DNA from: an uncultured Gammaproteobacteria bacterium
GTDB lineage: Bacteria > Patescibacteriota > Patescibacteriia > Patescibacteriales > UBA12465
Direction: 5' to 3'
NCBI GenBank assembly: GCA_964408775.1
Contig: CAYPAP010000001.1
Span: 21,404-85,403, forward strand
DNA length: 64,000 nt
The notes beneath the pieces are model-generated. The model saw nothing but the letters and a program-made list of their open reading frames with translations, was not told the origin of the DNA and searched no databases. Every line of letters begins with the position of its first letter. The stretch's first letter is position 1. This document shows, one piece after another, positions 1,758 to 56,664 of the stretch. Position numbers and translations under genes: made by a program.

Positions 1758-1864
1758 AAAGGCAACCAGCCGTTTAAATTAATTATAAATAAACTTATAA
1801 ACAACTAAAAATAGCTAAATCATTAACTATTTTTATTTTTTAATTAAACTCAATTAAAATAATC

Positions 1865-2158: not shown

Positions 2159-2228
2159 ATAAAAATAAGATTAAATTATAAATTAAAAAACGACTTTTGA
2201 TTATAGCATATTAATTTAAAAAGGCAAG

Positions 2229-3368
2229 CTAATGCACATCCAATACAAGATTTTGAAGCATCTCCTCTACAGATGGCTCAGAACCATCAACAATATAAAT
2301 ACGAGGGTCAAAAAATTGGAGTCTAGGAGTAGAAATAGTTGAATAATAATGATAAGTGCGATGTATTGTATAATTATTATCAGCTTTCCACTTAAAATCA
2401 TTAGCGGCAAAAACCTTATTACCATCAACATCATAAACACCAGAATCAACGCTCGCTACTGTGGCAGCAGTGTTATGAGGATGAGTATGGCCAACTATTA
2501 AGTACCATTTATCTTTATCAAAGTCGCTTATATTTCTATAAAAGAAATAGGGATTGGTATTTGAAGCGCCAGTAGTTAAAATAAAAACACCGGTATTAGT
2601 GCTACCCGAATAACCCCTTAAGCCAAGGTAGACTCTCCCGCTAGAATCAACCGATGTTTTTTTAAACCAAACAGAAAAACGATACATTTTTGTGCTATCA
2701 ATAGGCATGTCGGTATAAACGCTATTCCAGCCACCATCAGCGTTATTATCACCAACGGGGCGAGTTTCCCAAACAACACTTTCTTGACCAAAGGGGTTTG
2801 TTCCTAAAACCCTTTCATTTTCAGAGGTTAACCCATTTTGTGTAAAACTAAAAGAGCCTCCATATGTAGTTTTAGAAAGAGTCCCACTGCCGACTGCCCA
2901 ATTAGAGGAGTCAAATACAGGACTCGTAGGACTGCTGATGCCAGCGGGGGTAACCTTTTTTAAACCAGCTGTGTAATTTTCTACTTTTTCTGCAAGACAA
3001 AAATACATAAAATAACTATCCCCATCATCGGAGGAGGAATAGTTATAACTGCTATCCCCGCAAGTCATATCAGTATCATTAAGATTGCTTGGGACTTGCG
3101 ACATAAAAGTAACACCAGTAGAACTGCCTATTAGGGATTGGCCGGAGACTATAGAATCTGGGTAAGTGCCCTCTACCCTTTTATAATTCTCTAAAGCAAT
3201 CTGTATCTGATTAATATTATTTATTTTTTTAATTTCCCTTCCTTTTTGACGAGAATTGGATATAGATAAAAAAACCGTAGTTGCTATTAATGTTATTATA
3301 AAAATTACTCCTAAGAGTTCAATTAACGTAAAAGCCTTCCTTTGATAAAAAATCTTTTTAATACCCAT
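2229..3368 (-). CDS. Type IV pilin-like (prepilin-type N-terminal cleavage/methylation) protein with large C-terminal domain
   Basis: 379 aa; basic leader MGIKKIFYQRKA followed by FTLIELLGVIFIITLIA (class III signal, E at +5); ~300 aa beta-rich C-terminal domain of unknown function. Confidence 0.7.
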   Translation of the reverse strand: MGIKKIFYQRKAFTLIELLGVIFIITLIATTVFLSISNSRQKGREIKKINNINQIQIALENYKRVEGTYPDSIVSGQSLIGSSTGVTFMSQVPSNLNDTDMTCGDSSYNYSSSDDGDSYFMYFCLAEKVENYTAGLKKVTPAGISSPTSPVFDSSNWAVGSGTLSKTTYGGSFSFTQNGLTSENERVLGTNPFGQESVVWETRPVGDNNADGGWNSVYTDMPIDSTKMYRFSVWFKKTSVDSSGRVYLGLRGYSGSTNTGVFILTTGASNTNPYFFYRNISDFDKDKWYLIVGHTHPHNTAATVASVDSGVYDVDGNKVFAANDFKWKADNNYTIHRTYHYYSTISTPRLQFFDPRIYIVDGSEPSVEEMLQNLVLDVH

Positions 3369-3489: not shown

Positions 3490-5571
3490 TTATTTTTTTC
3501 CGCTTTTCTCCCTAATTTGCTCTAGTATATTCCTTGGTACTTCATTGTAATGAGAAAACTCCATCACATAATTAGCTCGGCCTTGGCTCATGGAACGAAG
3601 TGAAGTAGCATAACCAAACATCTCAGCCAGTGGAACCTTGGATAAAACAACCTTAGCATTACCCCTTTCAGTCATTTCTTCAATTTGACCTCTCTTAGCA
3701 TTTAAATCACCAATAATACTGCCCATATATTCCTCGGGAGTAGTAACCTCAACTTTCATAACTGGTTCTAACATAATAGGAGTTCCCTTCTGACAAGCTT
3801 CTTTAAAGGCAAAAATAGCCGCCATTTTAAAGGCAATTTCAGAAGAATCAACCTCATGGTAAGATCCGTCATACACAGTGGTTTTAACATCCACCATTGG
3901 ATAACCAGCCAAAATACCACTTTGCATTGCCTCTTTAACTCCCTTTTCTACGGCTGGAATATATTCACGAGGGATAGCACCACCTTTAACCTCATCAACA
4001 AATTCGTAACCCTTACCAGCTTCTTGTGGCTCAACTCGTAAATAACAGTGTCCATATTGACCACGACCACCGGACTGTTTGGCATATTTATGTTCAGCTT
4101 CTGATTTTTGTTTAATAGTTTCACGATAAGAAACCTGGGGATTCCCAACATTAGCATCAACGCTAAACTCTCTTCGCATTCTATCAACGATAATATCTAA
4201 ATGTAATTCCCCCATACCTGAAATTAAAACCTGCCCAGTCTCCTCGTCACTCTCTACTCTAAAAGTAGGATCTTCTTCAGCTAGACGACTCAAGGCAATG
4301 CCCATTTTTTCTTGGTCGGCCTTGGTCTTTGGCTCTACGGCAATTTTAATAACTGGCTCTGGAAAAATAATTGATTCTAATAGTATTGGCCTTTTTTCGT
4401 CACATAAAGTATTTCCAGTAGTAGTATCTTTTAGTCCGATAACGGCAGCAATATCCCCAGCTTTAATTTCTTTAATTTCTTCACGATGGTTAGCATGCAT
4501 ACGAACTAAACGCCCCACTCTTTCTTTATTTCCAGTAGAAGAGTTAATAATATAAGAACCGGAACTTAGAACTCCGCTATATACACGGACAAAACAAAGT
4601 TTACCAACAAATGGATCAGTAGCAATTTTAAAAGCTAGACCGGCGAATGGTTCTTTTTCATCAGCCTTAATAACTGTTTTTTTGATCTCATCTTTAATAT
4701 CACTTCCTTCAATTTCAGGAACATCTAAAGGAGACGGTAAATATTCGCAAACAGCATCTAAGGCTAATTGAACTCCAATATTTTGCAAAGCTGTTCCACA
4801 CATTACCGGATAAATTTCATTAGCGATAACCCCTTTTCTTAAGGCCTTCTTTAAATCTTCTAAAGAAAGTTCTTCTCCGCCTAAATATTTTTCAGTCAAA
4901 GCATCATCAAATTCGGCTACTTTTTCCACCAAGTCAGCATAATATTTATTTAATTTTTCCTCCATATCAGCTGGAACTGGGATCTCGCTTATTTGCTCAC
5001 CAAAGCTTCCTTCAAATTTATAAGCTTTTTTTGTTAAAATATCAATTACTCCTGAAAAATTATTTTCTGACCCGATTGGTAACTGATAAGCAAAGGCCTT
5101 AGAATTTAATCTTTTCTTGATAGACTCCAAGCTCATATAAAAGTCAGCGCCAGTTTTATCCATTTTATTAATAAAACAAATTCTAGGGACTCGATATTTA
5201 TCAGCTTGACGCCAAACAGTTTCGGATTGAGGCTCTACTCCTTGAGAAGCATCAAAAACAGCAATAGCACCATCTAGAACACGGAGTGATCTTTCCACCT
5301 CTACAGTAAAATCAACGTGACCAGGAGTATCAATAATATTGATTTTGTTTTCTTTCCAATAACAAGTGGTAGCAGCTGAGGTGATAGTAATACCACGCTC
5401 TTTTTCTTGTTCCATCCAGTCCATATCGGCGGCTCCATCATGAGTTTCTCCGATCTTATGCTTTTTACCGGTGTAAAACAAAACTCGCTCAGTAAAAGTT
5501 GTTTTACCAGCGTCAATGTGGGCCATGATTCCGATGTTACGGAATTTATCTAGAGTATAATCTTGTGACAT
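3490..5571 (-). CDS. fusA: Elongation factor G
   Basis: 693 aa; [17 protein letters not shown] and NKMD GTPase motifs; EF-G domain order. Confidence 0.97.
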
Positions 5572-10115: not shown

Positions 10116-11180
10116 TTAATTTTTAATACAGCGCACAGCATAACCGCTCGCACGAGCATTAGTTCCGGCATAAGCTTCAACACCGCCAAAGAAAAAAAGA
10201 CGCGCATAACCACTTTCTATATTACTGGACCAATAATAGCCATAAAGTCCAGCATTATAAAGAGATCCACCAAAGCCACGATTTCCATTTAAGGTTAATT
10301 TTAAAGACGAGGCAAAAGCTCCAGCTGAATCACTTGAACTCCAAGTTGCCATTTCGGCAGTCCACTCTGCTTCGGTTGGTATTCTAAAGCTGTCTGGACA
10401 GGGATTATTAATTCCATCCAATCCTTGCCATAAATTATTGTTAGAAGGGTTTCGCCAATCGTAAGGATCAGCTGCGGAAATAATAAAATTAGCGTGACCC
10501 GGGGTATCGGAGGTGGCCAATGTCGCTGTCGTGGCCGAGGTTCTGATTTGATGACCATCGTCTAATCTCCCCCACTGGAAAAGGTCGCCATAAGCGTTAG
10601 TGTCAGTAGATGAAATAGCTACCTGGGAAGCTCCAAGGTTGCGATCCAACCAGCATTCGCCAGTAACAGGGTTTAATGCCGTCCCATAAGTTACAGGAGA
10701 TCCGTTATATGTAAAACTCACATTATAACCACCACATTGAGGAGTGCTTATCCCGTTAGGGCTGGCTATTTTTAATCCAGCTGATAAATCAGAAATATTA
10801 CCTCCAACACAAAAACCTATAGTATAAGTTGAGCCATCAGCAGAGGTGTAAGTATAAGCATTATCGCTCTCTTCACAATCTCCGTCTGCTGGAGTAGGGG
10901 CTAAGGGAACTCTGGCCATATAGGTTGATCCTCCGGTAGCTATAGCTGTGTCTATTTCTCCAGTTAAAGGATATACTCCGGTGTCATTATAATATAGCTC
11001 TAGTGCTGTTTGCATCTGCCTGACATCAGCGATTCTTTTGGCGTCTCGAGCATTCTTCCTGGCATTTTGTAGGGACACTACGGCCAGAGTTGATAAAATA
11101 CCTATTATGGCTATCACTACTAACAGTTCAATTAGAGTAAAAGCCGGCTTGGTGGATTTATTATTCTTTATTTTAAACAT
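10116..11180 (-). CDS. Type IV pilin-like N-terminus fused to a Fibrobacter-succinogenes-major-paralogous-like C-terminal domain
   Basis: 354 aa; leader MFKIKNNKSTKPA + FTLIELLVVIAIIGILSTLAV; C-terminus 'FQWGRLDDGH...YGYYWSSN...SGYAVRCIKN' resembles the TIGR02145 Fib_succ_major ending '...GFSVRCVKD'. Confidence 0.6.
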   Translation of the reverse strand: MFKIKNNKSTKPAFTLIELLVVIAIIGILSTLAVVSLQNARKNARDAKRIADVRQMQTALELYYNDTGVYPLTGEIDTAIATGGSTYMARVPLAPTPADGDCEESDNAYTYTSADGSTYTIGFCVGGNISDLSAGLKIASPNGISTPQCGGYNVSFTYNGSPVTYGTALNPVTGECWLDRNLGASQVAISSTDTNAYGDLFQWGRLDDGHQIRTSATTATLATSDTPGHANFIISAADPYDWRNPSNNNLWQGLDGINNPCPDSFRIPTEAEWTAEMATWSSSDSAGAFASSLKLTLNGNRGFGGSLYNAGLYGYYWSSNIESGYARLFFFGGVEAYAGTNARASGYAVRCIKN

Positions 11181-18616: not shown

Positions 18617-19540
18617 TTATTTATATCTTATATAATTGTCCTCCGATAAAACATCTAGCTCAGGAATAATCTCTACTCGACTGACTGAGCTGATAGAGTT
18701 AACCCAAGAGATATTAATAGCTCTCTCCTCCATTGACATTAATTCATAAACCATATATTTATTCACGCCAATAATACTATTTTGATTAAATAACACTATA
18801 GACAATGGTACTTCCCAATAATTATAGGGGCTATTGTTTTTAATCTTAAAGCTTAGACTGTTACTATTACCGGGCTCAACCTGAGAGCCACTAATAGACT
18901 CAAATTTTTCATCTAAAATGTAAAAATTAGATCTATCTTTATAATAATTTTCCCAAGCTCCATAGCGCTTAACATCTACTCTTTGCCAATTAATATTTTT
19001 AATTACAAATTTTAAATTACTAATACGACCGCTAAAATCAACTGCTAAGTTTATTAGATATTTTTCCTCTTCGGGTAAAATTGTGGACCTACCGCAAGAA
19101 ACTTCAACATCCTCACTAAGAAAGCAATAGTTAACAAAAGAGATAAAATTATCGTTGGGATTTTTTATCCTATTAACAAAATCGTACTTACCATTATGAA
19201 GAAAACTCTGTGGAGAACCAACGCTCAGTGACTCGGCTGAACGAGTGGCACCAAAATTGACCGTGATAGTTGAAAGCTCTCTTAATATTCTTAACTCTTC
19301 TGGTCTGTTTTTTATATAAGAATAAAGATTTAAAAAAACCCTAGAATACAAAAAGATGGATAGTAAAATAAGGGCTAAAATTAAGATTATAACAAAAGAC
19401 CTTCGATTTCTTATAAACCATAAACCAAAGTTTAGGCGGCGCAAAGACTCCCCCTTATCACTATTATATTTACTAAGATCTATTTCTTTTTCCGTGTCAC
19501 CACGAAAGTCTTTTTCTAAATTATTTTTTTCATTGTCCAT
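18617..19540 (-). CDS. Hypothetical membrane-anchored extracytoplasmic protein
   Basis: 307 aa; charged N-terminus, one TM (FVIILILALILLSIFLY), large C-terminal domain with no recognisable motifs. Confidence 0.5.
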   Translation of the reverse strand: MDNEKNNLEKDFRGDTEKEIDLSKYNSDKGESLRRLNFGLWFIRNRRSFVIILILALILLSIFLYSRVFLNLYSYIKNRPEELRILRELSTITVNFGATRSAESLSVGSPQSFLHNGKYDFVNRIKNPNDNFISFVNYCFLSEDVEVSCGRSTILPEEEKYLINLAVDFSGRISNLKFVIKNINWQRVDVKRYGAWENYYKDRSNFYILDEKFESISGSQVEPGNSNSLSFKIKNNSPYNYWEVPLSIVLFNQNSIIGVNKYMVYELMSMEERAINISWVNSISSVSRVEIIPELDVLSEDNYIRYK

Positions 19541-23625: not shown

Positions 23626-25689
23626 TTAATTTCCTATTTCAACAAATTCTACTACTACTCCCCCTTTGTATTCATCTTCTAGCCCATAAAATGAAGCCAT
23701 CAATTCGCCCTTACTATTGAAAGCTCTAACATGGGGGGTCCCCCCTGGTCCAGCACCAGCTATTATTTCATCTAATCCGTCCTTGTCTAAGTCACCCAAA
23801 GCCAAATTAACCCCTCCTTTAAATTTTTCTGCATAGGCTAAGAAGCTTTTAATTTTTTCACCGGAATTATTAAAAACCACAATTTCTGGTTTACGACCTG
23901 GTCCTGGAGAAATAACTATATCAGTTTTTCCTCTGCTATCCTTACCATAGACATTCCCCAGTCGAATTCTAGCTCCACCGAAAAAATCTTCTTCATAAGC
24001 AAAAAAATGACTTGTGAGCTTCCCTTGACCATTAAAAATTTTAACATGAGATCCCCCTTTAGAAAATGGGACCACCGCAATTTCGCTTTTTCCATCTCCA
24101 TCAATATCACCCACTGAAATACTAACTCCTCCGGTAAAATTTTCGTTATAAGCAAAAAATTGACCTTTTAATTTTCCTTGTTGATCAAAAATTCTAATAT
24201 GTGGTCCTCCTCCTGGTCCCGCAGCGGTAACAATCTCGTTTTTACCATCACCATCAACATCTCCCACTGCTACATTAACCCCGCCCCTAAATTTGGGATC
24301 ATAGGCGAAAAATTGTCCCTTAATATTACCAGAATTATCAAAAATTCTAACATGTGGACCACCTCCTAATCCCGCCCCGGTTATTATTTCTGAGGTGCCA
24401 TCTTTATCCAGGTCTGCTACAACCATATTTATGCTACCATTAAACTTTGGATCATAAGCAAAAAAACGACTTTCCTCTTCACCCTTACTGCTAGTGACTC
24501 TGACTGAGTTAAACATCTCCAACTCGTCTTTAAAATCTATAATATCAACCTGAGGAAAAAGCAAGAATCGCCCGGTAAGATTTTCCCATTTTTCCAAAGC
24601 CCAATTAACAGAGCTGGCTAAATTAACCCTTCCACTGCCAAGCTCATTAAGGTTTTCTGGATTTAAGGAATTAATATCATCTGAACTCCTAATTAATATA
24701 TCCAAAACCTGCTTATTGCTTAATTTCGGATTAGCCTCTTTAATAAGAGCCAATGATCCGCTAACAACTGCTGCGGACATGGAGGTACCAGACCAATAAC
24801 CATTGTAATAACTATTTTTTTTATCTTCGGTATCATAAAAAGATGACGAAAAAAAACTTATTCCTGGAGCGGAAATATCTACACAGTTTTTACCATAGGA
24901 AGAAAAAAACGCCTTCTGATCTAAAGTATCAGTTGCTCCAACAGAAATAATAATATTATTGTTATTAGATCCACCGAAACAAGCTGGATAAAGAGGTTCT
25001 TGATCTAAGTCAGAATTATTATTACCAGCAGCTGCAACAACAAGAATACCAGCTCGATAAGCCCTTTCAACAGCCTCTTCAAACCCCTGATTATATCCTA
25101 GCCCCGAAAAACTAAGGTTGATTATATCAGCTCCATTGTTAATAGCATAATCTATAGCCCTGACCACATCATTAATTTTGCCCTCACCACCTTCGTCTAG
25201 AGCTTTAAGCGGCATTATCTTCACATTAGAGGCAATACCACTTATTCCTATAGAATTATTAGTCTTGGCCCCAATAATTCCAGCTATCATAGTCCCGTGG
25301 TTCAAACCATCGTCGCTCCCTCCAAGGTCAAGTCTAGGGCGAGGATCTGGAACATTGTTAACAAAATCCCACCCATTTACATCGTCGATAAATCCGTTGC
25401 CATCATCGTCTTTGCCATTTTCAAAAATCTCAAATTTATTGCGCCAAATATTATCTCTTAAATCGGGATGGTCAATATAAATTCCAGAATCAATCACAGC
25501 CACAATAACATTTTTACCAATAAAATTTTTATTCCATATAGAGCTAAATCCAATACGGCTTAAATACCACTGATTATTAAAATAAGGATCGTTCGGTAAT
25601 TGCCCAAAATAAGCCCGAGAAGGAGGGATTAAAAAAGCAAAACTCACCAATAAAAAAAATGCTAAAATTATAATTACTCTTATTTTCAT
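23626..25689 (-). CDS. Secreted subtilisin-like serine protease (S8) with C-terminal FG-GAP/beta-propeller repeats
   Basis: Start set at 'MKIRVIIILAFFLLVSFAFL' signal peptide (the ORF-track N-extension overlaps rplY); catalytic triad context VAVIDSGI (Asp), HGTMIAG (His), GTSMSAAVVSG (Ser); five repeats of 'FFAYDPKF.GG...GD.DGDG..EI.TGAGPGGGPHVRIF'. Confidence 0.85.
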   Translation of the reverse strand: MKIRVIIILAFFLLVSFAFLIPPSRAYFGQLPNDPYFNNQWYLSRIGFSSIWNKNFIGKNVIVAVIDSGIYIDHPDLRDNIWRNKFEIFENGKDDDGNGFIDDVNGWDFVNNVPDPRPRLDLGGSDDGLNHGTMIAGIIGAKTNNSIGISGIASNVKIMPLKALDEGGEGKINDVVRAIDYAINNGADIINLSFSGLGYNQGFEEAVERAYRAGILVVAAAGNNNSDLDQEPLYPACFGGSNNNNIIISVGATDTLDQKAFFSSYGKNCVDISAPGISFFSSSFYDTEDKKNSYYNGYWSGTSMSAAVVSGSLALIKEANPKLSNKQVLDILIRSSDDINSLNPENLNELGSGRVNLASSVNWALEKWENLTGRFLLFPQVDIIDFKDELEMFNSVRVTSSKGEEESRFFAYDPKFNGSINMVVADLDKDGTSEIITGAGLGGGPHVRIFDNSGNIKGQFFAYDPKFRGGVNVAVGDVDGDGKNEIVTAAGPGGGPHIRIFDQQGKLKGQFFAYNENFTGGVSISVGDIDGDGKSEIAVVPFSKGGSHVKIFNGQGKLTSHFFAYEEDFFGGARIRLGNVYGKDSRGKTDIVISPGPGRKPEIVVFNNSGEKIKSFLAYAEKFKGGVNLALGDLDKDGLDEIIAGAGPGGTPHVRAFNSKGELMASFYGLEDEYKGGVVVEFVEIGN

Positions 25690-25735
25690 ATTAGTAAATT
25701 TTAGCATATTTTTTAGAAAAACAAAAATTGTAAAA

Positions 25736-26389
25736 CTAGCTTTTATTCTCTCCTGTTTTGTCACTTTTTGATTTGTCATCCTTGGCTTCGCTAGCTTCGT
25801 CACCGCTAGTTGCCTCTGGAACATCGGTTTTAGGAAGCTCTTCTTTTTCTTTTTTAGGCTCAACCACAGAAACAACAGCATCATCCGGATTATTTAAAAC
25901 TTTTAGATCGCTACTAACTTTAATATCTTTCACTAAAATAATATCACCGAAGGAAAGAAGAGATGAAATGTCCACATCAATATGGTCTACCAAGTCTTTT
26001 GGCAAGCACTCAACCTCTATAGAATCAATATTTTTCATTAATAAAGCACCTAGCTCCTTCACTGCCCGAGATTCGCCAACAAAGCTTAGTGGAATTTCAG
26101 CGGTTACCTTTTTACTCATATCAACCTGGTAAAAATCAACATGACTAAAAAAATCTTTGATCGGGTCTCTCTGAAAATCCTTAATTAGAACTGGAATCTT
26201 GCCAGATCCATCAATCTCTAATTCTATTAAATTAGATTCACCAGCCTCATCATAAACCTTGGTAAAATCATTGGTTTTAATCTTTATTAAAACATTTTCC
26301 GACCCTGGACCATAGATTATTCCAGGAAAAAAATCTTTGTTTAATTTTTCTTTTTTACTTCTAATTTCAGCTTTTAACTTAATGTTCAT
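25736..26389 (-). CDS. rplY: 50S ribosomal protein L25 / general stress protein Ctc
   Basis: 217 aa; L25 N-domain plus Ctc-type C-domain, ending in an acidic/Lys-rich low-complexity tail. Confidence 0.75.
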   Translation of the reverse strand: MNIKLKAEIRSKKEKLNKDFFPGIIYGPGSENVLIKIKTNDFTKVYDEAGESNLIELEIDGSGKIPVLIKDFQRDPIKDFFSHVDFYQVDMSKKVTAEIPLSFVGESRAVKELGALLMKNIDSIEVECLPKDLVDHIDVDISSLLSFGDIILVKDIKVSSDLKVLNNPDDAVVSVVEPKKEKEELPKTDVPEATSGDEASEAKDDKSKSDKTGENKS

Positions 26390-37149: not shown

Positions 37150-38883
37150 TTAAACTAAGTTAATTTTGTCTTTTTTCTTTTTGCTATATTTGGTATGAAG
37201 AACTCTATGATCCTGACTATTATTTTTTAACCATTTAACCACTTCTACGGCCCCCTTATTATCATGGGCTGTTCTTATTTTAATCTTTTTATCCCCTTGA
37301 TACAACCCGGCCGTTCTTTTTGATACAATTTCCATAGAACTAGGTATGGGTTGACCACCGCCACCAATACAACCACCTGGGCAAGCCATCACTTCAATAT
37401 AATCATATTTAGACAAATTGTCCAGCACTCCCTTAATATTACCTATACCATTAACTACTGCTACATTTAATTTTTTACCGGATAAATCAATTTTAGCCTC
37501 TTTTACACCCTCTAAGCCACGCACCTCTTTAAATTCTAGTCTAGAACGACATATTTTAGCTTTTTTAGGGTCACAGATAACATGATGCGCCGTCCTAAGA
37601 GCTGACTCCATAACACCGCCACTAGCCCCATAAATAATTCCGGCCCCACTGCCGTCATTTATTAAATCATTAGATTTTTCTGGTCTTAATTTCTTAAAGT
37701 CAATATTGTTCTTCTTTATCATAAAAGCTAACTCTCTGACCGTTAAAACCTTATCCACCGGTTTTAACTTACCAATTTTAAGCTCAGGCCGAGAAATTTC
37801 AAACTTCTTAGCCGTGCAAGGCATAATAGAAACAATAACAATATCCTCGGGTTTAATTTTTTTCTTTTTAGCCCAGTAGGTTTTAATAATTCCACCTAGA
37901 TGAATTTGCGGCGAACGAGAGCTTGTGAGATGCGGAATTAAATCAGGCCTATAAAACTCTAAGTATTTAACCCAAGCTGGACAACAAGAAGTCATTAAAG
38001 GTAACCCAGCCTTTTTATCATTCAATCTTTCTAATAATTCCTCGGCCTCAACTAAAGTAGTTACATCGGCGCCAAAAACCACATCCATAACCTGGTCAAA
38101 TCCTAATTTCTTTAAGGCTGCTACCATTTTTCCACTATTATTTTGCCCGTAAGGCAGGCCGAACTCCTCTCCAATAGAAACCCTGGTTGAAGGAGCAATC
38201 ATGGCTATTAAAGTTTTCTTACCTTTTTTAGCTAAAATGTCTTCCACTTCCCCCCAATTATATTGCTCCTGAGCTGAGGCCACTGGACAATGGAGAGCAC
38301 ATTGCCCACAATAAATACAATCGATATTGGGGTCTTGAGTAGGCACTATTTCCTGCGCAGCTCCCTTCCCTTTTATTTCTAAGTAATTTATTTTTTGAAT
38401 ATCAGAGCAAGCATCCACACAATTACGACAATCTATACACTGAGACCCATCAATTTCCACGGCATTAGCAAATTTATATGTTTTACGTTTTACTTTTCTG
38501 TCTTGAAAATTAGTAACTTTCAAATCATACTTTTTTGCTAGGTTTAATAAATCACAATTATATTTTAAAGTGCAACCAAAACATTTCTCAGTATGTTCGG
38601 CAAAAATTAATTTCAAATTAGTGTTACGAGCTTTTTTAACTTTAGGCGAATTTGTAAATATTTCTATTCCATTCTCGGCTAAAACTGAACAAGAGGTCAT
38701 TAATTTATCACAATCCTTCACCTCAACCACACAAACACGACAATTAGCCTTAATTTTTAGGTCTGGGTGATAACATAAAGAAGGAATAAATATTTTATTA
38801 TTCCGAGCTATTTCCAAGATAGTCTGACCTAAATAGCCCTGACATTTTTTACCATCTATTTTTATTTCTATTTTTTTTGGCAT
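37150..38883 (-). CDS. hydA: [FeFe]-hydrogenase catalytic subunit HydA (M3, CpI-like)
   Basis: 577 aa; N-terminal 2Fe-2S ferredoxin-like domain; 4Fe-4S motifs CIDCRNCVDAC and CIYCGQCALHCP; H-cluster motifs L1 'TSCCPAWV', L2 'MPCTAKKFE', L3 'ACPGGCIGGGGQP'. Confidence 0.9.
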   Translation of the reverse strand: MPKKIEIKIDGKKCQGYLGQTILEIARNNKIFIPSLCYHPDLKIKANCRVCVVEVKDCDKLMTSCSVLAENGIEIFTNSPKVKKARNTNLKLIFAEHTEKCFGCTLKYNCDLLNLAKKYDLKVTNFQDRKVKRKTYKFANAVEIDGSQCIDCRNCVDACSDIQKINYLEIKGKGAAQEIVPTQDPNIDCIYCGQCALHCPVASAQEQYNWGEVEDILAKKGKKTLIAMIAPSTRVSIGEEFGLPYGQNNSGKMVAALKKLGFDQVMDVVFGADVTTLVEAEELLERLNDKKAGLPLMTSCCPAWVKYLEFYRPDLIPHLTSSRSPQIHLGGIIKTYWAKKKKIKPEDIVIVSIMPCTAKKFEISRPELKIGKLKPVDKVLTVRELAFMIKKNNIDFKKLRPEKSNDLINDGSGAGIIYGASGGVMESALRTAHHVICDPKKAKICRSRLEFKEVRGLEGVKEAKIDLSGKKLNVAVVNGIGNIKGVLDNLSKYDYIEVMACPGGCIGGGGQPIPSSMEIVSKRTAGLYQGDKKIKIRTAHDNKGAVEVVKWLKNNSQDHRVLHTKYSKKKKDKINLV

Positions 38884-39884
38884 AAATTTGGATAAACATT
38901 TTTAAAATAACTTAAAATAGCGATAGGAGCACAGGCCCCCAAGGCGCAAAAAGAAGATGTTTCTAAATTTTTACATAAATCAACAAAATCACTAACATCT
39001 TTTAAATATGAACGTTTATTTTTAAATAACTCTAATAAACGATAAGTGCCCTCGCGGCAAGGAGTGCATTGACCGCAAGAATTATCGGCGAAAAAACTCA
39101 ACCAATAATTAACCAGCTTTTCAGGTCGATGATTAGAAAGTTTATAAATAGTGATAGACCCGGCACCGGGAACTTTTCTTCTTAATTGTTTCTGATTAAA
39201 TACTTCCCCGCTAGCATCTCCGCCCACTTGAACAAAAAAATCGTATTTAGGATAGTTTTTAGTTTTGATTAAAACATCTTTAATACTTAAATCATCTGGC
39301 AAACTATAAACACCCTTGTTTTTATTTTCTATATTAATAGAATAAAATCTCTCACCAGAAAATTTATTTATACTAACTAAATAAACGTCATATAAGGTCT
39401 CAATATTATTAATCAAAGTCGGTTGGCCAAAAAGTCCCTTTTCGGTTGGAAATGGGGGGCGTAATCGAGGTTCGGCTCTCCCGCCTTCAATGATATTTAA
39501 AATAGTACTTTCCTCCCCACCAATATATCCAGCCCCTTTTGGTTTTTTGATTATTTCAAATTTCCCCTTTAAACCAGCCTTATTAAATTCTTTTATTATC
39601 TTGTTCTTATAAATATCATAATATTTACCATTGAGATAAAAATAAATTTTGGTAGCCTTAATGGTGTCGGAGGCGATCTTAACACCAATAGAAAATTCTT
39701 TTAATAAATTTTTAATAATATAACCATCCTTATAAATACCAGGTTCTCCCTCGGCTCCATTTATTATTAAATATTTAGTTTTGCTTTTAGCCTTGGCTAC
39801 GGATTGCCACTTAATATGAGTTGGGAAACCAGCCCCACCTCGGCCAAGCAAACAAGCTTTTTCTATTTTTTTTATTATCGACAT
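38868..39884 (-). CDS. NuoF-like (51-kDa/HydB-type) NAD(P)H-binding flavoprotein, minimal form
   Basis: 338 aa; 'GRGGAGFPTHIKW' FMN/NADH motif very near the N-terminus; C-terminal 4Fe-4S motif 'SCGQCTPCREG'; overlaps the hydA start by 16 nt (operonic). Confidence 0.75.
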   Translation of the reverse strand: MSIIKKIEKACLLGRGGAGFPTHIKWQSVAKAKSKTKYLIINGAEGEPGIYKDGYIIKNLLKEFSIGVKIASDTIKATKIYFYLNGKYYDIYKNKIIKEFNKAGLKGKFEIIKKPKGAGYIGGEESTILNIIEGGRAEPRLRPPFPTEKGLFGQPTLINNIETLYDVYLVSINKFSGERFYSINIENKNKGVYSLPDDLSIKDVLIKTKNYPKYDFFVQVGGDASGEVFNQKQLRRKVPGAGSITIYKLSNHRPEKLVNYWLSFFADNSCGQCTPCREGTYRLLELFKNKRSYLKDVSDFVDLCKNLETSSFCALGACAPIAILSYFKNVYPNLCQKK

Positions 39885-43860: not shown

Positions 43861-45711
43861 CTAATTTTGGTAGAAATCTTTAACCATTTTATTAAATAAA
43901 CTAATGTCATTATTATAAGACTCGGCCTTCAACTGATAATTATTTAGAACATTATTATAGTTAGACACCTTGGTATTATACTCATTAACAGAAATATTAT
44001 AATTACTAGTATCTCCGGTGGCCTGATATTCATCTATTTTTACAAGTAAAGCATCTAATTCTGCCCTGAGAACGCTTAATTGCGCGACTATAGAATCTAA
44101 TTCTAATTTTTTATTTTTAATAGAGGCGTTCATATCCGATATAGCACTGACTTGGCTGGTAATACTACTCATGCCCGTAAAAAGCCTTCCCACTGTTTTA
44201 TTATAAATTTCAACTACACCCAAGCTACTTCCACTAAATATTTCTGACCAATTAACATCTCCTACCCTGGCCTGCCCCGAAGATAAGCCTGTTGGGAAAA
44301 CACCTACTGGAAAATAATTTGTTGTTTCTATAAAACAAAATCCCGAATTATAGGAAGACTGACCCGAACAGGCTACGGCTACAGCTGAGTGATTGTCATT
44401 GGGATAGTCAAAAATAGTAGCCCCGTAACCCAAGCCATTTAACAACGAATGAGCCAAGAAAGCCTTATCCGAACAAACCCCCGAATTTTTATATAAAGTT
44501 TCATAAGGAAAGTTTTGTGGGCTAGCGCTAGTCTTAGTATTATCATAGGGAATAAATTGAACTAACGCCATCGCAAATTCCACTAATTCATTATCATTAA
44601 ATCCCTCACTAGCCGCTATTTTTTTTAAACCGGCCACCAGATTATCGATAGAGTCATCTCCGTTTTTTAAAGTTAAAAATATTTCATAATAACTCTCCCG
44701 AGGATTAGAAGGAGGATTGGAAGAAGAATACTGCAAGGATTTATTGGATTTTTTATAGCTATTATACAAATCGTCTCTAAAAATCTGATCTAAATAATAA
44801 TCTTTATTTTTATATCTAAAATTGAACCTAACTGTTTTCTGACCCGGCTCAATAGAAGGGGCCTCTCCATTATTAATAACCAAGGCTTGCAAGCTTATTT
44901 GCCCTAAATTAGTATTAGATATTCCCAAGCCTAAATTACGCATGATATTAAAAGCATCAGCTGGTCGACCCAAATAATAAAGGCGATTATTTTCGGGATT
45001 AACATAGTAAGCCTGACCCTTGTCCTCAACCTGAAGTAAAATTCTTCCGGACAAATTAGCCCGAGCCCCATTTTTAATAAAATTATTTACGTCACTATTT
45101 GATACACCTAAACCAAAATGACGCATAATATTAAAAGCGTCATTTGGTCGACCTAAATAATAACCCTTCAAATCTAACGGGTTAACATAATAAGCCTCGC
45201 CATTTTTTTCTACCTGTAATATTATTTTTCCTGACAACCGATTAGCCAAAGCAGATGTTTCGGCTCTGGACACAAAGGGAATAAAAAACAAAGAAAGCAG
45301 AAACAGGGTCAATAATATTTTATTCTTAAAAATCTTCATTTTTTTTATTTTAATATCAGGGTCCCTATCATATTTGGGAATAACTATATTAAAATTATTA
45401 ATTCTCTTAATATTTTCTTTATCGGAAACAAAAGTCTCCACGGGGATGCCCAGGGCATAGGCCAAGGCATTGGCAGTTAGAACCCCGATACGTAAAGAAG
45501 TAAAGCTACTTCCTCGATTCTCAACTTTTATTTTTTTGATAAGCTTTAATTCTATTTTAGCGCCAAGCATCATTTTTTCAATAGCCGGCAAAAGCTTTTC
45601 AGCCTGAGAACGATGGGCTTTGATTTTTTTCTTTTTTATAATAACTCCCCTTCTCTCTAGAGATAATTCTATTATTTCATTGTCAGAAGTGTTTATATTT
45701 AAAGTTAACAT
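43861..45711 (-). CDS. Fusion ORF: TsaB/YeaZ N-terminal-like domain (~120 aa) in frame with a secreted repeat + transglutaminase-like cysteine-protease-like protein (alternative start at 45339)
   Basis: N-terminus 'MLTLNINTSDNEIIELSLE...AEKLLPAIEKMM...SFTSLRIGVLTANALAYALGIPVE' resembles the TsaB N-domain; internal 'MKIFKNKILLTLFLLSLFFIPFVSRA|E' is a clean signal peptide; two ~55-aa repeats (LSGKIILQVE.NGEAYYVNP...YYLGRP.DAFNIMR..GLG.SN); Cys/His motif 'GVCSDKAFLAHSLLNGLGYGATIF...HSAVAV'; C-terminal coiled coil. Confidence 0.55.
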   Translation of the reverse strand: MLTLNINTSDNEIIELSLERRGVIIKKKKIKAHRSQAEKLLPAIEKMMLGAKIELKLIKKIKVENRGSSFTSLRIGVLTANALAYALGIPVETFVSDKENIKRINNFNIVIPKYDRDPDIKIKKMKIFKNKILLTLFLLSLFFIPFVSRAETSALANRLSGKIILQVEKNGEAYYVNPLDLKGYYLGRPNDAFNIMRHFGLGVSNSDVNNFIKNGARANLSGRILLQVEDKGQAYYVNPENNRLYYLGRPADAFNIMRNLGLGISNTNLGQISLQALVINNGEAPSIEPGQKTVRFNFRYKNKDYYLDQIFRDDLYNSYKKSNKSLQYSSSNPPSNPRESYYEIFLTLKNGDDSIDNLVAGLKKIAASEGFNDNELVEFAMALVQFIPYDNTKTSASPQNFPYETLYKNSGVCSDKAFLAHSLLNGLGYGATIFDYPNDNHSAVAVACSGQSSYNSGFCFIETTNYFPVGVFPTGLSSGQARVGDVNWSEIFSGSSLGVVEIYNKTVGRLFTGMSSITSQVSAISDMNASIKNKKLELDSIVAQLSVLRAELDALLVKIDEYQATGDTSNYNISVNEYNTKVSNYNNVLNNYQLKAESYNNDISLFNKMVKDFYQN

Positions 45712-45826
45712 AAATCATTTATAAAATTTACTATAAGTAAATTATAGCATATTTTTTTATTTTCAAGAAGAAAGGAGAGATAATATTTGATATATCAAAC
45801 AAAAATAGATCTAATTTTATTACCAC

Positions 45827-46771
45827 TTAAGCCGATAATAAAAATACCTTTATATCCTCGTAAGACTTAGACTTCATAACCTTATCTCTTAAATTAGAAG
45901 CTCCTGGAAAATCTTTCAAGTACCAAGCTAAGTGTCCCTTAAATTCATTAAAACTAATATCACCCCTATTTTTATTTATTAATTCCAAATGTCTTAAGGC
46001 GATTTCAATTATTAATATCTTTTTATTATCTCCATCAATATCCTGAAAGTCTTTAGAAAAAACCCAGGGACGGCCAAGAGCTCCCCGACCGAAGGCAACA
46101 CCGTCTACTCCCGTTTTTTTAAAAACATCGTAGGCCTCGGATAAATCATTTATCCCTCCATTGGCTAAAATTACTCCTGAAAAATAATTGCGACTTTCTT
46201 TTATTAAATCTAAATCAATCGGACCAGAAAAAAGTTGCTTTAAGCTACGTCCGTGTATCATCAAAGCTGAAACAGGTAAATCAGAAATATTTTTTAAAAA
46301 ATCCAATAAGCCCACTGAGAAAGCCTCGGTGCGAACCTTTATAGATAAAGGAATTTTTGTGTTTTCTAAAACAGCTTCTATTATTTCTCGTGATAATTTT
46401 AAGTCCCCCATTAATTTAGACCCCGCTCCTTGTTTTAAAACTTTTTTAACTGGACAGCCAAAATTTATATCAATACCGTCAGGTTTAATGTTTTTTTCCA
46501 AAAATTTTACAGCCTCAATAAAGTGGTTTTTGTTTGATCCAAAAATTTGTACAACATAGGGTTTTTCTTTTTTATCAAATTTTAGCATCTCCAGGGTCTT
46601 CTTAGGTTTATACTTTAGGGCTGAAACAGAGGCCATTTCGCTATAAACAACATCAGCCCCAAACTCCTTACAAATAAAGCGAAAAGCCGAATCTGTAAAT
46701 CCGGCCAGTGGAGCTAGAGCCAAAATGGGCTCGTCTTTTTTATCTTTTTTTAATTTATGCCAAAAATTCAT
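45827..46771 (-). CDS. dus: tRNA-dihydrouridine synthase
   Basis: 314 aa; 'LAPLAGFTDSAFRFICKEFGADVVYSEM' Dus N-terminal motif; FMN TIM barrel. Confidence 0.85.
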   Translation of the reverse strand: MNFWHKLKKDKKDEPILALAPLAGFTDSAFRFICKEFGADVVYSEMASVSALKYKPKKTLEMLKFDKKEKPYVVQIFGSNKNHFIEAVKFLEKNIKPDGIDINFGCPVKKVLKQGAGSKLMGDLKLSREIIEAVLENTKIPLSIKVRTEAFSVGLLDFLKNISDLPVSALMIHGRSLKQLFSGPIDLDLIKESRNYFSGVILANGGINDLSEAYDVFKKTGVDGVAFGRGALGRPWVFSKDFQDIDGDNKKILIIEIALRHLELINKNRGDISFNEFKGHLAWYLKDFPGASNLRDKVMKSKSYEDIKVFLLSA

Positions 46772-46785
46772 TTTTAAAAATTACA

Positions 46786-48228
46786 TTACTTTTTAGTTAA
46801 CTCTGTTTTATTTCCTGCTAAATCTTGAACCTCATAACCCATTCCCTCTAGTTTTAACCTAAGCTCATCTGATTTAGCAAAATCTTTATTCTTCCGAGCA
46901 ATAATTCTCTCGTTTAAAATTTTCTTAACATCCTCCGGCAAATTCTCCTCTATATTTCTGGAAGCATCTTTTTCTTCGTCGCCCTCTAATACCTTTCCCA
47001 AATTTAAACCCCAAATCAAATCAAAATCTAAAATAGTAGCCAATTTATCCTCATTTGACAATTCTGATTTTAAAATATCAGAAATTAAAGACAAACTTCT
47101 AGAGGCATTAAAATCATCCAATAAATAATCTAAAAACTTATTCTTAAATTCTTCATTAACAACACCTATATTATTACCTAATTTTTCAACTTTAGATAAA
47201 AGATTAGTTAGTCCTTTTTGTGAGGCTTTTAAGGCTTCAAAGGTAAAGTTTTGTTTAGATCGATAATGAGCCTGCAAGAAAAAATACCTCAATGCTAAAG
47301 CCGAAAAACCTTTAGAGATGATATCTGACAGACTAAAGCTATTGCCCTCTGATTTAGCCATTTTACCATCATTCAACAGTAAGTGCTCATTATGGAGCCA
47401 ATAATTAGCTAGCCTATCTCCAGTAGCAGCCTCGCTCTGAGCTATTTCATTGCTATGGTGGACACTGACATGCTCAATACCTCCCATATGAATATCAATA
47501 GTGTCTCCTAAAAATTGCCTTATCATTGCTGAGCATTCTAGATGCCAACCGGGAAAACCTCGGCCACCCTCTACTAAAGAGGAGTTAAAAGGCGATTCCC
47601 ATGTTTGCAGGGCATTCTTGTGCTTCCCTGCTTTAAAGAACCATAAAGCAAAATCATAATGATTTTTTTTATTAATATCACTAACATCTCCCTGCCCAGC
47701 GCCACTAATATTTTTTTCTAATTTACGCCCCGATAATTTACTGTAATCCTTAAACTTGTCCACCTCAAAGTAGATCGCTAAGTCCGTTGCATAAGCGTAT
47801 CCCTTGGCAATTAATAACTGAATAATCTCTATCATTTCATTAATACTTTCCGTAGCCCTTGGTTTAAACTTTGGTTCTAATATATTAAGTTTATTAACAT
47901 CCTCTTCGTAAATTTTTATAAACTTACTAGCAACCTCATCGGGACTTAGCTTTTCTTGACGAGCGGTCTTTTCTATTTTATCCTCGCCCTCATCCTCATC
48001 CGAAACCAAATGACCAACATCAGTATAATTCCTAACCATGGAAACATTGTAATTCAAGTATTTAAAGGTCCTATGAATAATATCGGCGCAATAAGATCCT
48101 CGCAAATTGCCAATATGCTGGGTCCAATAAACTGTCGGACCACAATAATAAAAAGAAACCTCGCCTGGCTGGAGGGGCTCAAACTCTTCTTTTTTCCTAC
48201 TTAAAGTGTTATATAAATAAACCTTCAT
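46786..48228 (-). CDS. cysS: Cysteinyl-tRNA synthetase
   Basis: 480 aa; HIGN (HIGH-class) and 'KMAKSEGN' (KMSKS) motifs; zinc-binding Cys residues. Confidence 0.92.
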   Translation of the reverse strand: MKVYLYNTLSRKKEEFEPLQPGEVSFYYCGPTVYWTQHIGNLRGSYCADIIHRTFKYLNYNVSMVRNYTDVGHLVSDEDEGEDKIEKTARQEKLSPDEVASKFIKIYEEDVNKLNILEPKFKPRATESINEMIEIIQLLIAKGYAYATDLAIYFEVDKFKDYSKLSGRKLEKNISGAGQGDVSDINKKNHYDFALWFFKAGKHKNALQTWESPFNSSLVEGGRGFPGWHLECSAMIRQFLGDTIDIHMGGIEHVSVHHSNEIAQSEAATGDRLANYWLHNEHLLLNDGKMAKSEGNSFSLSDIISKGFSALALRYFFLQAHYRSKQNFTFEALKASQKGLTNLLSKVEKLGNNIGVVNEEFKNKFLDYLLDDFNASRSLSLISDILKSELSNEDKLATILDFDLIWGLNLGKVLEGDEEKDASRNIEENLPEDVKKILNERIIARKNKDFAKSDELRLKLEGMGYEVQDLAGNKTELTKK

Positions 48229-48243
48229 AAAATTAGATTAAAT

Positions 48244-49356
48244 TTAATCTTTTCTTAATTTTTCCATTAGTTTGGCATAAAATTCCAAATTATTCAAGCT
48301 GGCCATTTTTTGCCCTAAGGACTCGTTAACTTTAAACAAATGATGCAAATAAGACATGGAATTTTCCTGCAATATTTTCAGTTCTGAGTCTTTATTAATT
48401 TTTTTAAAATTACTAATATTAGATGAATTTTTAATATTAATTTCATTATAGAAATTAATCGATTTTATATCCTTATTTTTGAATTGATAGAGTTTCCCAT
48501 GACGCCCCTCTCTAGTCGGGATAACACAATCAAACATATTCCACCCCATTTTACGGCAACGATAAATATCGGCTGGACTACCAATTCCTAAGGCAAATTT
48601 AATTTTATCGTCGGGAATAATTTTGGCAGTATACTCTAAAATATCAAATAAAAAATTGCCGTTTTCATCTACCGGCCGAGCTCCAAAACCATATCCAGCA
48701 AAGGGAATCTTTTCTTTTAAAAAAACACTATTAGATACATCCAATAATCCGTCTAAACATCTTTTTCTTAGTTCACGACTATTACCTCCTTGAATTACTG
48801 CAATTAATTTAGGGATTTTTTCACCTTTTAGTTTTCTTTTTTTTATTTGCCTAATATATTCTTGGTGGCAACGGCGAGCCCAAGAAATAGTTCGGTCAAC
48901 TGCTAAGGAAATTTTTTTATCAGAAAAATTATAGGGAGGGCAATCGTCTAAACAAACCATAAAATCAGTTCCTAAATCAAACTGAATTTGGATTGATTTT
49001 TCAGGACTTATTTCATGAGTAGACCCATCTATAGGAGACTTAAAAACAGCTCCCTCTTCATTAATTTTTCCCATTTTGGGATTTTGATGAATAAGGGAAA
49101 AAATCTGGAAACCACCACTATCGGATAATAATGGCCCAGACCAATTCATAAAATTATGAATTCCACCAGATTTTTTTATAACTTTAACACCGGGCTGAAG
49201 GTACAAGTGAAAAGTATTAACTACCAAGGCTGATATTCCTGACATTAACAACTCCTTGTTCTCACACATTTTTATAAAACCACGAGTAGCATCGGGCATA
49301 AAAATTGGTAGATTCAATGATCCGTGATGTGTTTTTATTTTATTATTTTTAACCAT
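48244..49356 (-). CDS. tgt: Queuine tRNA-ribosyltransferase
   Basis: 370 aa; 'LLSDSGGFQIFSL' catalytic-Asp motif; C-terminal zinc-site region followed by an extra ~60-aa tail. Confidence 0.85.
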   Translation of the reverse strand: MVKNNKIKTHHGSLNLPIFMPDATRGFIKMCENKELLMSGISALVVNTFHLYLQPGVKVIKKSGGIHNFMNWSGPLLSDSGGFQIFSLIHQNPKMGKINEEGAVFKSPIDGSTHEISPEKSIQIQFDLGTDFMVCLDDCPPYNFSDKKISLAVDRTISWARRCHQEYIRQIKKRKLKGEKIPKLIAVIQGGNSRELRKRCLDGLLDVSNSVFLKEKIPFAGYGFGARPVDENGNFLFDILEYTAKIIPDDKIKFALGIGSPADIYRCRKMGWNMFDCVIPTREGRHGKLYQFKNKDIKSINFYNEINIKNSSNISNFKKINKDSELKILQENSMSYLHHLFKVNESLGQKMASLNNLEFYAKLMEKLRKD

Positions 49357-54071: not shown

Positions 54072-55235
54072 TTAACTTAAATAAATTTTATGAGTTGCAA
54101 AAGCACATTCCCACCAATTATACTTTTTTTGCTGATCATGGCCAAGAGATATTAACTTTTCCCTTAAGCTTGTATCGGAAAATATTTTTTCAATTTTATT
54201 CAAAAAGTCTTCCTTATCCCTTGGGTTAAAATAAATAGCAGCCTCTCCCAAAATTTCAGGCATACTACCGGCATTAGAACTTAAAACTGGGCAACCTTTA
54301 GCCATGGCTTCAAGCGGTGGCAATCCAAATCCTTCATATAAGGAAGGAAAAACATAAACCAGAGCTTTTTTATAAAAAATTTCCAGCTTATTATCTGGTA
54401 CATAGCCAGCAAAAATAACTGGGTTTTCTGGAAAATCAGCAAAAACACTATCAGACAGATCCTTTAGCTCTTGGTAGAAATAATCTTCCCTCCCAACTAA
54501 AACCAGTTTTAATTTATTATTTCTTTTATGCAAATCTAAAAAACTAGTAATTAAAAAATCTAAGTTTTTATGAGGATAGGCATTACCGACATATAGAACA
54601 AAGGGATCCCTAATCTCATAATCCCGCAAAACATTGGAACTATTTAATTTAGCAACAAACAAAGAGTCCTGCCCTTTCGACAAATTAGAGACACCCTCAT
54701 ACACAACGGAAATTTTGTTTGAATCAATTTTAAACTGTTCAATTATGTCATTTTTAGTAAACTCTGAAACTGCTATAATATCCTTACTTTTCTTTAAAGC
54801 GTTTTTAATCACCAATCGATATCCCCAGTTTTTAATCCTGTAAATAATGGGATGGAGAGTTGTAGCTCTAATAGTCTTAAATTTAGTTAGAATTAGATCG
54901 TGGATAGTAACAACAAATTTAGTTGGGACAAAAAAAGGAACATTAAAATGAGGAAAATGTATTAAATCTAGTTTCTGACGCCAAATAAAATAAGGCATCA
55001 AAAATTGCTCCTTTAAGGTATACCACCGAACTTCAGCTAAAACCTTTTTAACATTTTTATAATCATCAATTATCAGCTCATCGAAATTCTCCTTTCGCAA
55101 AAAAATGACATACTCATTAAAATCATCTAGTCTTAAAATATTATCAACGATCTCCTGAGTATACCGGCCCAGCCCTTTCCCGATAGGACCATAAAAACGA
55201 GCATCTATGCCTATTCTTTTTTTGTTATTTTTCAT
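54072..55235 (-). CDS. Glycosyltransferase family 4 (GT-B, group 1)
   Basis: '[30 protein letters not shown]' (E-x7-E GT4 motif); start trimmed to '[17 protein letters not shown]' to remove overlap with the upstream ORF. Confidence 0.8.
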
Positions 55236-56664
55236 TATTTTTTTCAACTTCAACATCTTCGCTATTATTATTATCTTTCCCTTTCTTATTTTTAGTGATG
55301 AGATCTTCTTTAAATAAATCATCCTCTAAAGAATCTGAGTCGCTAACATCATCCTCAAAGGCCAAATTGACCGGTGGTTTATATTTTTTAGCCGGGGTCT
55401 TTTGGACCAAGGGGGCATTAGATACTGATTCCACTGGAAAATGCCATAATGTCGCCAATTCTTCGATATTTAACAAAAAGGCAGTTCGACCAGCCCAATC
55501 GTTTCTGTCTATATAATTATTCATAATATTATTTTTTCTAGCTATCAATCTTGGCCCTTTATTAAAATAAGAAACCTTAGTTGCGGTTAGCTTTAAGTCT
55601 GGCTTAAGTCCATTTAAATCTAGAGCGGAAAACTGTTTAATGTAGCCAATAAATCCGTTAACCACTTTAGCCTTATTCATAACCTCTTTTTTGGATAAAT
55701 AAACCACTCTGACCTTGCATAAAAATGCTAATTTTGCAGACTTATTCTCAATGGCCTCTATTTTCTTTTTTTGCTTAGGGGTAAGTTCCATCATGGATAA
55801 CTTTTTAAAATCATCTTTTTCCTTATCACTATCAATATCGCCCCAAATAGAATAAACCATCTCGCTCAGCTCTCCCATAATATTAATAAAGCCATCTATC
55901 ACTTTGTTTAAAAAGGTTGTCTCTGGTTTTTTACCTAAAATCTTATCAATTTCGCCTTTGCCATCGTCAACCCAATCAAAGCCAGTAGGAATAACTATAA
56001 TCTGATATAATAAATTCTCACCCTGACGCAAACTACTGCACAACTCCATTAACTCAGCCATGGGATCCCTAAAAGTAAACTCCTCGTCCCCTAAACGGTG
56101 CTCAAACTCCTGATAAGTTTTTATAGGATACATATAATGAGCAGAGGGAATGAATTCTGCGCCCCAAACATCATAATCATCGTCAGGGAATTTTCTAGGA
56201 AAGCCATCGCAATAATCATCAACTTCCACAATTTCAGCCTCAGGATATTGAGAATAAACTGCTGACTCGACCAAGCTCCTAAACTTTTCTGGAGTTCTAA
56301 TTAAAAATTGTGTATAACCATCCAGACTAACTATTTCAAAACTAAAAGATAGTTGATACTCGCCTAGAAACCATTTTTCAAAAAAATTCTGAGTAGAATG
56401 AGCTCCACCAAAATAAGTAAATAGATTCTCCACTGCCTGAGGTGATTGCATATTTCCTCGAGGAATGTCAATGGCCAGTAAAATAAATTTTATATCCTTC
56501 CCCCACTTCCTCTTTACACTTTTGAGCCATAAAATACTAGCAGCCCATAAAAACATAATACCAAAAATAATCCAACCGAAATAGGCCATAAAACGCCAAA
56601 GCATTACATCTGGAGGCAGAGCAAAAAAAGCTTGAATAGGGGCAAAATCAACTACTATTTCCAT
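55225..56664 (-). CDS. Hypothetical membrane protein (2 N-terminal TM + soluble domain, acidic tail)
   Basis: 479 aa; no recognisable catalytic motif; sits in the envelope gene cluster. Confidence 0.45.
   Translation of the reverse strand: MEIVVDFAPIQAFFALPPDVMLWRFMAYFGWIIFGIMFLWAASILWLKSVKRKWGKDIKFILLAIDIPRGNMQSPQAVENLFTYFGGAHSTQNFFEKWFLGEYQLSFSFEIVSLDGYTQFLIRTPEKFRSLVESAVYSQYPEAEIVEVDDYCDGFPRKFPDDDYDVWGAEFIPSAHYMYPIKTYQEFEHRLGDEEFTFRDPMAELMELCSSLRQGENLLYQIIVIPTGFDWVDDGKGEIDKILGKKPETTFLNKVIDGFINIMGELSEMVYSIWGDIDSDKEKDDFKKLSMMELTPKQKKKIEAIENKSAKLAFLCKVRVVYLSKKEVMNKAKVVNGFIGYIKQFSALDLNGLKPDLKLTATKVSYFNKGPRLIARKNNIMNNYIDRNDWAGRTAFLLNIEELATLWHFPVESVSNAPLVQKTPAKKYKPPVNLAFEDDVSDSDSLEDDLFKEDLITKNKKGKDNNNSEDVEVEKNNEK

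Follow-up and report, generated by a model that had tools for sequence, protein, structure and literature searches.

Read directly from the sequence, the minus strand of the stretch of DNA analysed here (the window, 64,000 nucleotides (nt) of a contig from an uncultured bacterium of the Patescibacteriota) carries an uninterrupted, ATG-started open reading frame (ORF) of 616 codons at 43861..45711. From the N- to the C-terminus its product consists of a TsaB/YeaZ N-lobe (residues 4-92), a signal peptide, two repeats, a transglutaminase-like core and a coiled coil. Met125 is the first residue of the signal peptide MKIFKNKILLTLFLLSLFFIPFVSRA and is encoded by the ATG at 45339. The work described below indicates that the 616-codon ORF is probably two ordinary neighbouring Patescibacteria genes, a short tsaB homologue (mini-tsaB) and a gene for a secreted protein of 492 amino acids (aa), that were put in one frame by the loss of a single base, and not an evolved fusion. 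The features of both genes and of the junction between them are collected in Table 1.

Table 1. Features of the two genes and of their junction in the window, and loci of relatives that carry the gene pair
Feature	Coordinates	Strand	Basis or remarks
mini-tsaB, one-lobe TsaB/YeaZ homologue	45340..45711	-	aa 1-124 of the fused ORF; profile, structure and homologue matches
A8 run	45339..45346	-	attributed to the 1-nt deletion; ends with the first base of the downstream ATG
Downstream-gene start ATG	45337..45339	-	closest homologues begin at this Met
Old mini-tsaB stop TAA	45326..45328	-	lies in frame -1 relative to the fused ORF; same stop position in relatives (+11 from the ATG)
Secreted transglutaminase-like protein, 492 aa	43861..45339	-	homologues start at the same Met
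Signal peptide MKIFKNKILLTLFLLSLFFIPFVSRA	45262..45339	-	basic n-region, 16-residue hydrophobic core, S-R-A before the predicted cleavage site
Repeat 1, aa 35-95	45055..45237	-	LSGxILLQVExxGEAYYVNP...YYLGRPxDAFxxMR..GLG; self-comparison, alignment, AF2
Repeat 2, aa 96-156	44872..45054	-	self-comparison, 25-homologue alignment, AF2
Transglutaminase-like (papain-type Cys/His) core	44200..44652	-	invariant Cys289 (TGT 44473..44475), His317, Glu338
C-terminal two-helix antiparallel coiled coil, aa 390-491	43864..44172	-	repeated Y-N motifs; AF2 helices 390-441 and 444-491, pLDDT >90
Gene-pair loci			L001-L003, L007, L008, L011-L014, L016, L017, L020, L025, L030, L031, L038, L043, L072

Each half of the ORF has a large set of relatives of its own. 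With the full 616 aa as query, 1,589 relatives were retrieved; the best 120 are 423-532 aa long and match only the C-terminal 68-82% of the query. Among these 120, an N-terminal extension is present only in an identical sequence (P0001), and a cluster look-up placed the fused protein in a cluster with a single member. The upstream half was searched with the 128-aa protein of the closest relative, which matched 529 clusters; the best 120 (P0121-P0240) are all stand-alone proteins of 117-134 aa. Several of these carry the name TsaB from JGI or NCBI, and those with an organism in the source name come from Patescibacteria or Falkowbacteria. Both halves are thus members of large families of stand-alone proteins, which are represented in hundreds of Patescibacteria genomes.

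The same separation is seen at the DNA level. The closest loci are L001, with 82% protein identity, and L002 and L003, with 71%. All three possess a separate 128-aa PF00814 gene that stops 11 nt past the downstream ATG, giving a 14-nt overlap between two genes in different frames; in L001 the upstream gene lies at 3628-4014. The neighbouring genes are arranged in the order tgt, cysS, dus, the 128-aa PF00814 gene, the 492-497-aa gene, rpsB, tsf, PSP1 and gap, and the order in L001 is identical to that in the window. L002 has insertions at 1786-3360, an rve-family integrase and two small ORFs between dus and mini-tsaB, and a pilin-like N_methyl/Fib_succ_major gene after the 497-aa gene. The window has a similar pilin-like gene at 10116-11180. 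The window (43861-49356, minus strand), L001 and L002 thus have in common a conserved tRNA-related cluster, tgt-cysS-dus-mini-tsaB, directly 5' of the secreted-protein gene and the rpsB-tsf operon.

A wider set of 80 loci from different species was collected with a profile of the 492-aa family. Mini-tsaB lies directly upstream in 14 of them plus L001, L002 and L003, that is, in 17. In all 17 the two ORFs are in different frames and the upstream stop falls in the interval from -17 to +11 nt relative to the downstream ATG, while the fused frame is seen only in the window and its identical copies. The near-zero spacing of the pair is kept down to about 45% protein identity; the other 63 loci have no mini-tsaB upstream of the homologue.

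Alignment of the junction with these relatives locates the difference. Where L001 and L002 read AAAAA[G/C]AAATG the window has AAAAAAAATG, and exactly one base is missing. Written out, the aligned relatives have ...GATATTAAAATAAAAA[G/C]AAATGAAT ATT TTT A[G/A] and the window has ...GATATTAAAATAAAAA-AAATGAAGATTTTTAAG, so that the window departs from the relatives by one missing base plus one substitution and nothing more. The spacer from AAAAT to the ATG is 8 nt in six of the loci with the 14-nt overlap (L001, L002, L007, L011, L013 and L016) and 7 nt in the window. Loss of 1 nt within a 14-nt overlap shifts the mini-tsaB frame past its own stop and into the frame of its neighbour. The trace of the old ending is still present. 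The mini-TsaB proteins of relatives, 127-128 aa long, end in ...KIK(K/R/T)NEYF followed by a stop; the -1 frame of the window ends N-E-D-F-stop where the relatives end N-E-Y-F-stop. The sequence-only reading, an earlier interpretation of this DNA made from the letters alone, had offered as one option two genes with either a missed stop or an internal start at 45339. It was right about the two genes and about that ATG, but the cause is a 1-nt deletion and not a misread stop. An insertion in the relatives instead of a deletion in the window was rejected on parsimony, as 17 divergent species keep separate frames. An alternative genetic code was also ruled out, since the stops concerned are TAA and TAG and every neighbouring gene reads normally under table 11.

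The upstream protein is a TsaB homologue that is reduced to one lobe. The N-terminus had been described as TsaB-like and the stand-alone product as a very short TsaB, and both descriptions hold: residues 4-92 match TIGR03725, and 127-128 aa is the normal form in the clade. Against the isolated 124 aa, TIGR03725 gives an E value of 1.4e-14 over profile positions 2-89 of 212, with a score of 54.6 bits that is under the curated equivalog cut-off of 69.3 bits. PF00814 scores 37.5 bits, above its gathering score of 24.8. A profile search of PDB sequences matches mini-TsaB only to the N-terminal residues of YeaZ/TsaB, about 3-94. The AlphaFold2 (AF2) model of mini-TsaB has a predicted local distance difference test score (pLDDT) of 90.4 and helices at 36-50 and 70-87, and the top Foldseek matches of this model are all the N-lobe of YeaZ/TsaB (E 5e-9 to 1e-6, TMq 0.69, root-mean-square deviation of about 2 A, about 96 columns).

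Mini-TsaB and TsaB/YeaZ have the same N-lobe ASKHA fold, with strands 1-3, helix a1 (aa 36-50), strand 4, helix a2 (aa 70-87) and strand 5. The sequence RGSSFTSLRIGV is the window version of the G-x-GSFTG-x-RIG loop that precedes helix a2. In it, GSFTSLRIGV corresponds to GPGSFTGxRIG of TsaB, and the residues S69, F70, T71, L73, R74 and G76, which do not vary among 45 mini-TsaBs, line up with GPGSFTGVRIG of 3r6m. Both helices of the TsaD interface are kept and are highly conserved in mini-TsaB. In the solved TsaBD complexes, paired N-terminal helices of TsaB and TsaD make a four-helix interface (PMC6009658; PMC9654439). The differences lie at the C-terminal end. The entire C-lobe of about 90-100 aa is absent, and strand 5 is followed only by a short tail that carries a conserved P-x-Y-D-R-(E/D)-P motif, so that mini-TsaBs are 117-134 aa long compared with 200-251 aa for the solved TsaBs. 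The last 4-5 residues of the mini-TsaB of this strain are in addition replaced through the read-through. From the profile matches and the model, mini-TsaB is predicted to be the counterpart of the dimerisation half of TsaB, the partner of TsaD in the synthesis of N6-threonylcarbamoyladenosine (t6A) in tRNA; for want of the C-lobe, and by its score, it falls outside the TsaB equivalog.

The N-lobe-only form appears to be the standard form of TsaB in this part of the Patescibacteria, where it makes up hundreds of protein clusters. Within the searchable library, no paper pairs TsaB with Patescibacteria or the candidate phyla radiation (CPR), and searches on truncated TsaB likewise turned up no account of a one-lobe form. 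Ten size-matched ORFs of the window were scanned for tsaD and tsaE and neither was found among them; they encode an epimerase, a sigma factor, a glycosyltransferase, a pilin-like protein, RsmH, S7, S12, YdjM and MraZ, and 18617..19540 has no Pfam match. If it is confirmed biochemically, mini-TsaB would define a minimal TsaD partner. How, or whether, does TsaE dock on such a protein? TsaE of T. maritima touches both lobes of TsaB (PMC6009658), and with the C-lobe gone the docking of TsaE on mini-TsaB, if there is any, must differ.

The downstream protein begins with the signal peptide that the sequence-only reading had placed at 45339. The segment has the expected n/h/c layout and all homologues begin there; all 25 aligned homologues have an equivalent hydrophobic segment at the N-terminus, and the AF2 model shows it as an N-terminal helix. 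Two repeats of 55 aa had been noticed after it. The repeats are real, with 66% identity over 50 aa (E 1e-24), but each is about 61 aa long. The residues of the repeat motif are invariant across the 25 homologues, the AF2 fold is beta-beta-beta-alpha-beta-alpha, and no Pfam or NCBIfam model matches either 61-aa repeat. The two 61-aa repeats (44872-45237, minus strand; LSGRILLQVExxGEAYYVNP...YYLGRPxDAFxxMRxxGLG) represent an undescribed extracellular module that is nearly invariant within the family.

A Cys/His transglutaminase-like core had likewise been proposed, and the profile and alignment results agree with this. PF04473 (DUF553) matches the core with 22.8 bits against a gathering score of 20.5. 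It matches 24 of 25 family members; PF01841 matches 15 of the 25, weakly. Cys289, His317 and Glu338 are invariant in all 25 and are located at helix 289-302, strand 317-324 and strand 334-337, respectively. The order of Cys (GVCSDK), His (NHSAV) and acidic residue (IETT) is that of the transglutaminase/papain fold (PF01841, PF04473; LapG, PNGase, Pei), but the third catalytic position is apparently Glu where Asp is expected. The AF2 model of the 492-aa protein has a pLDDT of 85.3 and places a beta-hairpin between the repeats and the core. Whole-chain Foldseek matches in the PDB are weak (E 0.04-0.2); besides coiled coils they are PNGase, LapG, the pseudomurein endoisopeptidase PeiP, menin, Rad4 and BDI_1141, nearly all of the transglutaminase fold. 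The family profile matched against PDB sequences returned coiled-coil noise and one marginal transglutaminase-like match, 3isr (E 0.61), and the C-terminal coiled-coil region has only coiled-coil-type matches in both Foldseek and the PDB profile search. The architecture as a whole, with signal peptide, two 61-aa repeats, beta-hairpin, core and 100-aa antiparallel coiled coil, is specific to this family and differs from the known members of the fold. By inference from these matches, the 492-aa protein may be an exported Cys-His hydrolase or transglutaminase-like enzyme, possibly one that acts on envelope peptides.

If the two genes are separate in all relatives, is the missing base a property of the strain or of the consensus? 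The least unlikely alternative to the one-base loss described above is a sequencing or assembly artefact, in which the true spacer is 8 nt (A5-N-A3 or A9), the genes are separate and one base was lost in the consensus. We consider this unlikely. The difference is a single base within an A-rich run, a classic site of indel errors, and the frames are separate in every relative. Two further points weigh against a real mutation. The five contigs that carry the fused protein are identical and may therefore share one read set, with a systematic error possible at this homopolymer, and among the relatives retrieved there was no un-deleted allele of the same species. The junction, as an exact pattern with the extra base or without it, also gave no match in the metagenome_contigs and genome_contigs collections, which do not contain this species.

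Several observations speak against an artefact. At least five contigs of differing sizes, from four public archives (ENA, Logan, JGI and NCBI), carry the fused protein. The DNA of two of these contigs was read (L004-L006), a MEGAHIT-style k141 contig from ENA and a contig of Logan SRR10872584, and it matches the window with 100% identity over as much as 9.8 kb. That the allele is reproducible across contigs argues for a real allele. At least one contig looks like a short-read MEGAHIT assembly (k141), in which A8 runs are normally read accurately. Of the 30 runs of A or T of at least 8 bases in the window, 26 fall within ORFs of 450 nt or more that show no evidence of a broken frame, and thus a general homopolymer error is not indicated. 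The site in the relatives is also not a pure homopolymer (A5-G/C-A3), so a mere miscount of As would be insufficient and the loss or replacement of a non-A base would be required. The ratio of nonsynonymous to synonymous substitution rates (dN/dS) of mini-tsaB is 0.10-0.13 in comparisons with the window and 0.09-0.14 among the relatives. As the values are the same, the mini-tsaB of the window has not long been in decay and the change, if it is real, must be recent or tolerated. A real, recent and strain-specific mutation is probably the explanation and is clearly favoured over an artefact.

The merging of genes by a frameshift within their overlap is an already known kind of event. As in other frameshift fusions of overlapping coupled genes, the upstream stop lies 11 nt past the next ATG in the relatives, and an indel of 1 nt merges the ORFs. 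The only special feature here is the internal signal sequence that arises when the downstream partner starts with a signal peptide. In the proposed sequence of events, two ancestrally separate genes that were tightly packed, and probably co-translated, would have been merged when a single nucleotide was lost from the 8-nt A-rich spacer just 5' of the downstream ATG.

Synthesis of the secreted protein from its own ATG most likely continues. A Shine-Dalgarno-like motif is present at only 1 of the 47 gene starts in the window, from which it is evident that the organism initiates without Shine-Dalgarno pairing. Starts across the window sit in leaders with 13-20 A/T per 20 bases. The internal ATG at 45339 has an A/T-rich leader without a Shine-Dalgarno motif, like 46 of the 47 other starts, and with this context intact an independent start at 45339 should continue. 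Ribosomes that start at mini-tsaB would read through and produce a chain of TsaB, signal peptide and transglutaminase-like protein, in which a basic stretch and then the hydrophobic signal sequence come after the cytoplasmic TsaB lobe. The internal signal sequence of this chain should insert with the N-terminus inside, and signal peptidase could cut after S-R-A, which would leave an intact TsaB N-lobe at the membrane. Alternatively, some ribosomes or transcripts could slip on the A8 run into the old frame and end at the old TAA. The insertion, cleavage and slippage of the read-through product are inference only. There is a small chance that the deletion is real and fixed and that the cell copes with it in one of these two ways, via a 127-aa mini-TsaB restored by -1 slippage or by stuttering of RNA polymerase to A9, or via a TsaB N-lobe that the signal peptide of its neighbour, cleaved or uncleaved, anchors to the membrane. 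If this is true, the strain would be a natural experiment on how much TsaB, and where, is needed for t6A synthesis in a minimal cell.

Slippage could also be a programmed form of expression. It may be proposed that the A8 run serves as a site of -1 frameshifting or transcriptional slippage that yields a 127-aa mini-TsaB ending in ...KIKKNEDF, with re-initiation at the overlapping ATG. In AT-rich reduced genomes, both ribosomes and RNA polymerase are known to slip on A-runs of such length. The heptamer A AAA AAA at 45346-45340 is in phase with the fused frame and has the X XXY YYZ form of a slippery site, and reading in the -1 frame restores a tail close to the ancestral one together with the ancestral stop. 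However, there is no stimulatory RNA structure 3' of the A8 run (folding z = -0.84), and the slippery site is not conserved, as the relatives need no frameshift. Retention of the -1 stop is no evidence for recoding, because the conserved signal-peptide codons would by themselves keep this stop in place. With neither downstream structure nor conservation of the site, recoding is a minority possibility that we regard as improbable.

The other option of the sequence-only reading was a genuine fusion that would tether the TsaB domain to a membrane or secreted protein. In favour of such a fusion as a selected trait from which the cell benefits, the ORF is uninterrupted, its TsaB part is under purifying selection and the tight coupling of the pair in 17 species makes a functional link or co-expression possible, but such a selected fusion is very improbable, since the genes are fused neither in any of the 17 species that carry the pair nor in any of the best 120 relatives (no more than 532 aa), a cleavable internal signal peptide right behind a cytoplasmic domain is no designed linker, the junction departs so little from that of the relatives, and a tRNA-modification subunit and an exported enzyme would end on opposite sides of the membrane.

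The loss of one base from two neighbouring genes has consequences for annotation. The locus should be annotated as two genes, a mini-tsaB whose last codons are frameshifted and a secreted transglutaminase-like protein of 492 aa that starts at 45339, and a report of the ORF as a novel TsaB-transglutaminase fusion should be avoided. In AT-rich Patescibacteria genomes that lack Shine-Dalgarno sequences, overlapping genes joined by A-rich spacers need only one indel to become a pseudo-fusion. A similarly indel-prone junction is found elsewhere on the minus strand of the window, where the genes 38868..39884 and 37150..38883 overlap by 16 nt (38868-38883) with an A8 run at 38871-38878. Two same-strand pairs of long ORFs have larger overlaps of about 100-150 nt, 23626..25884 with 25736..26389 and 54072..55322 with 55225..56664 (minus strand), and these are probably due to over-extended starts.

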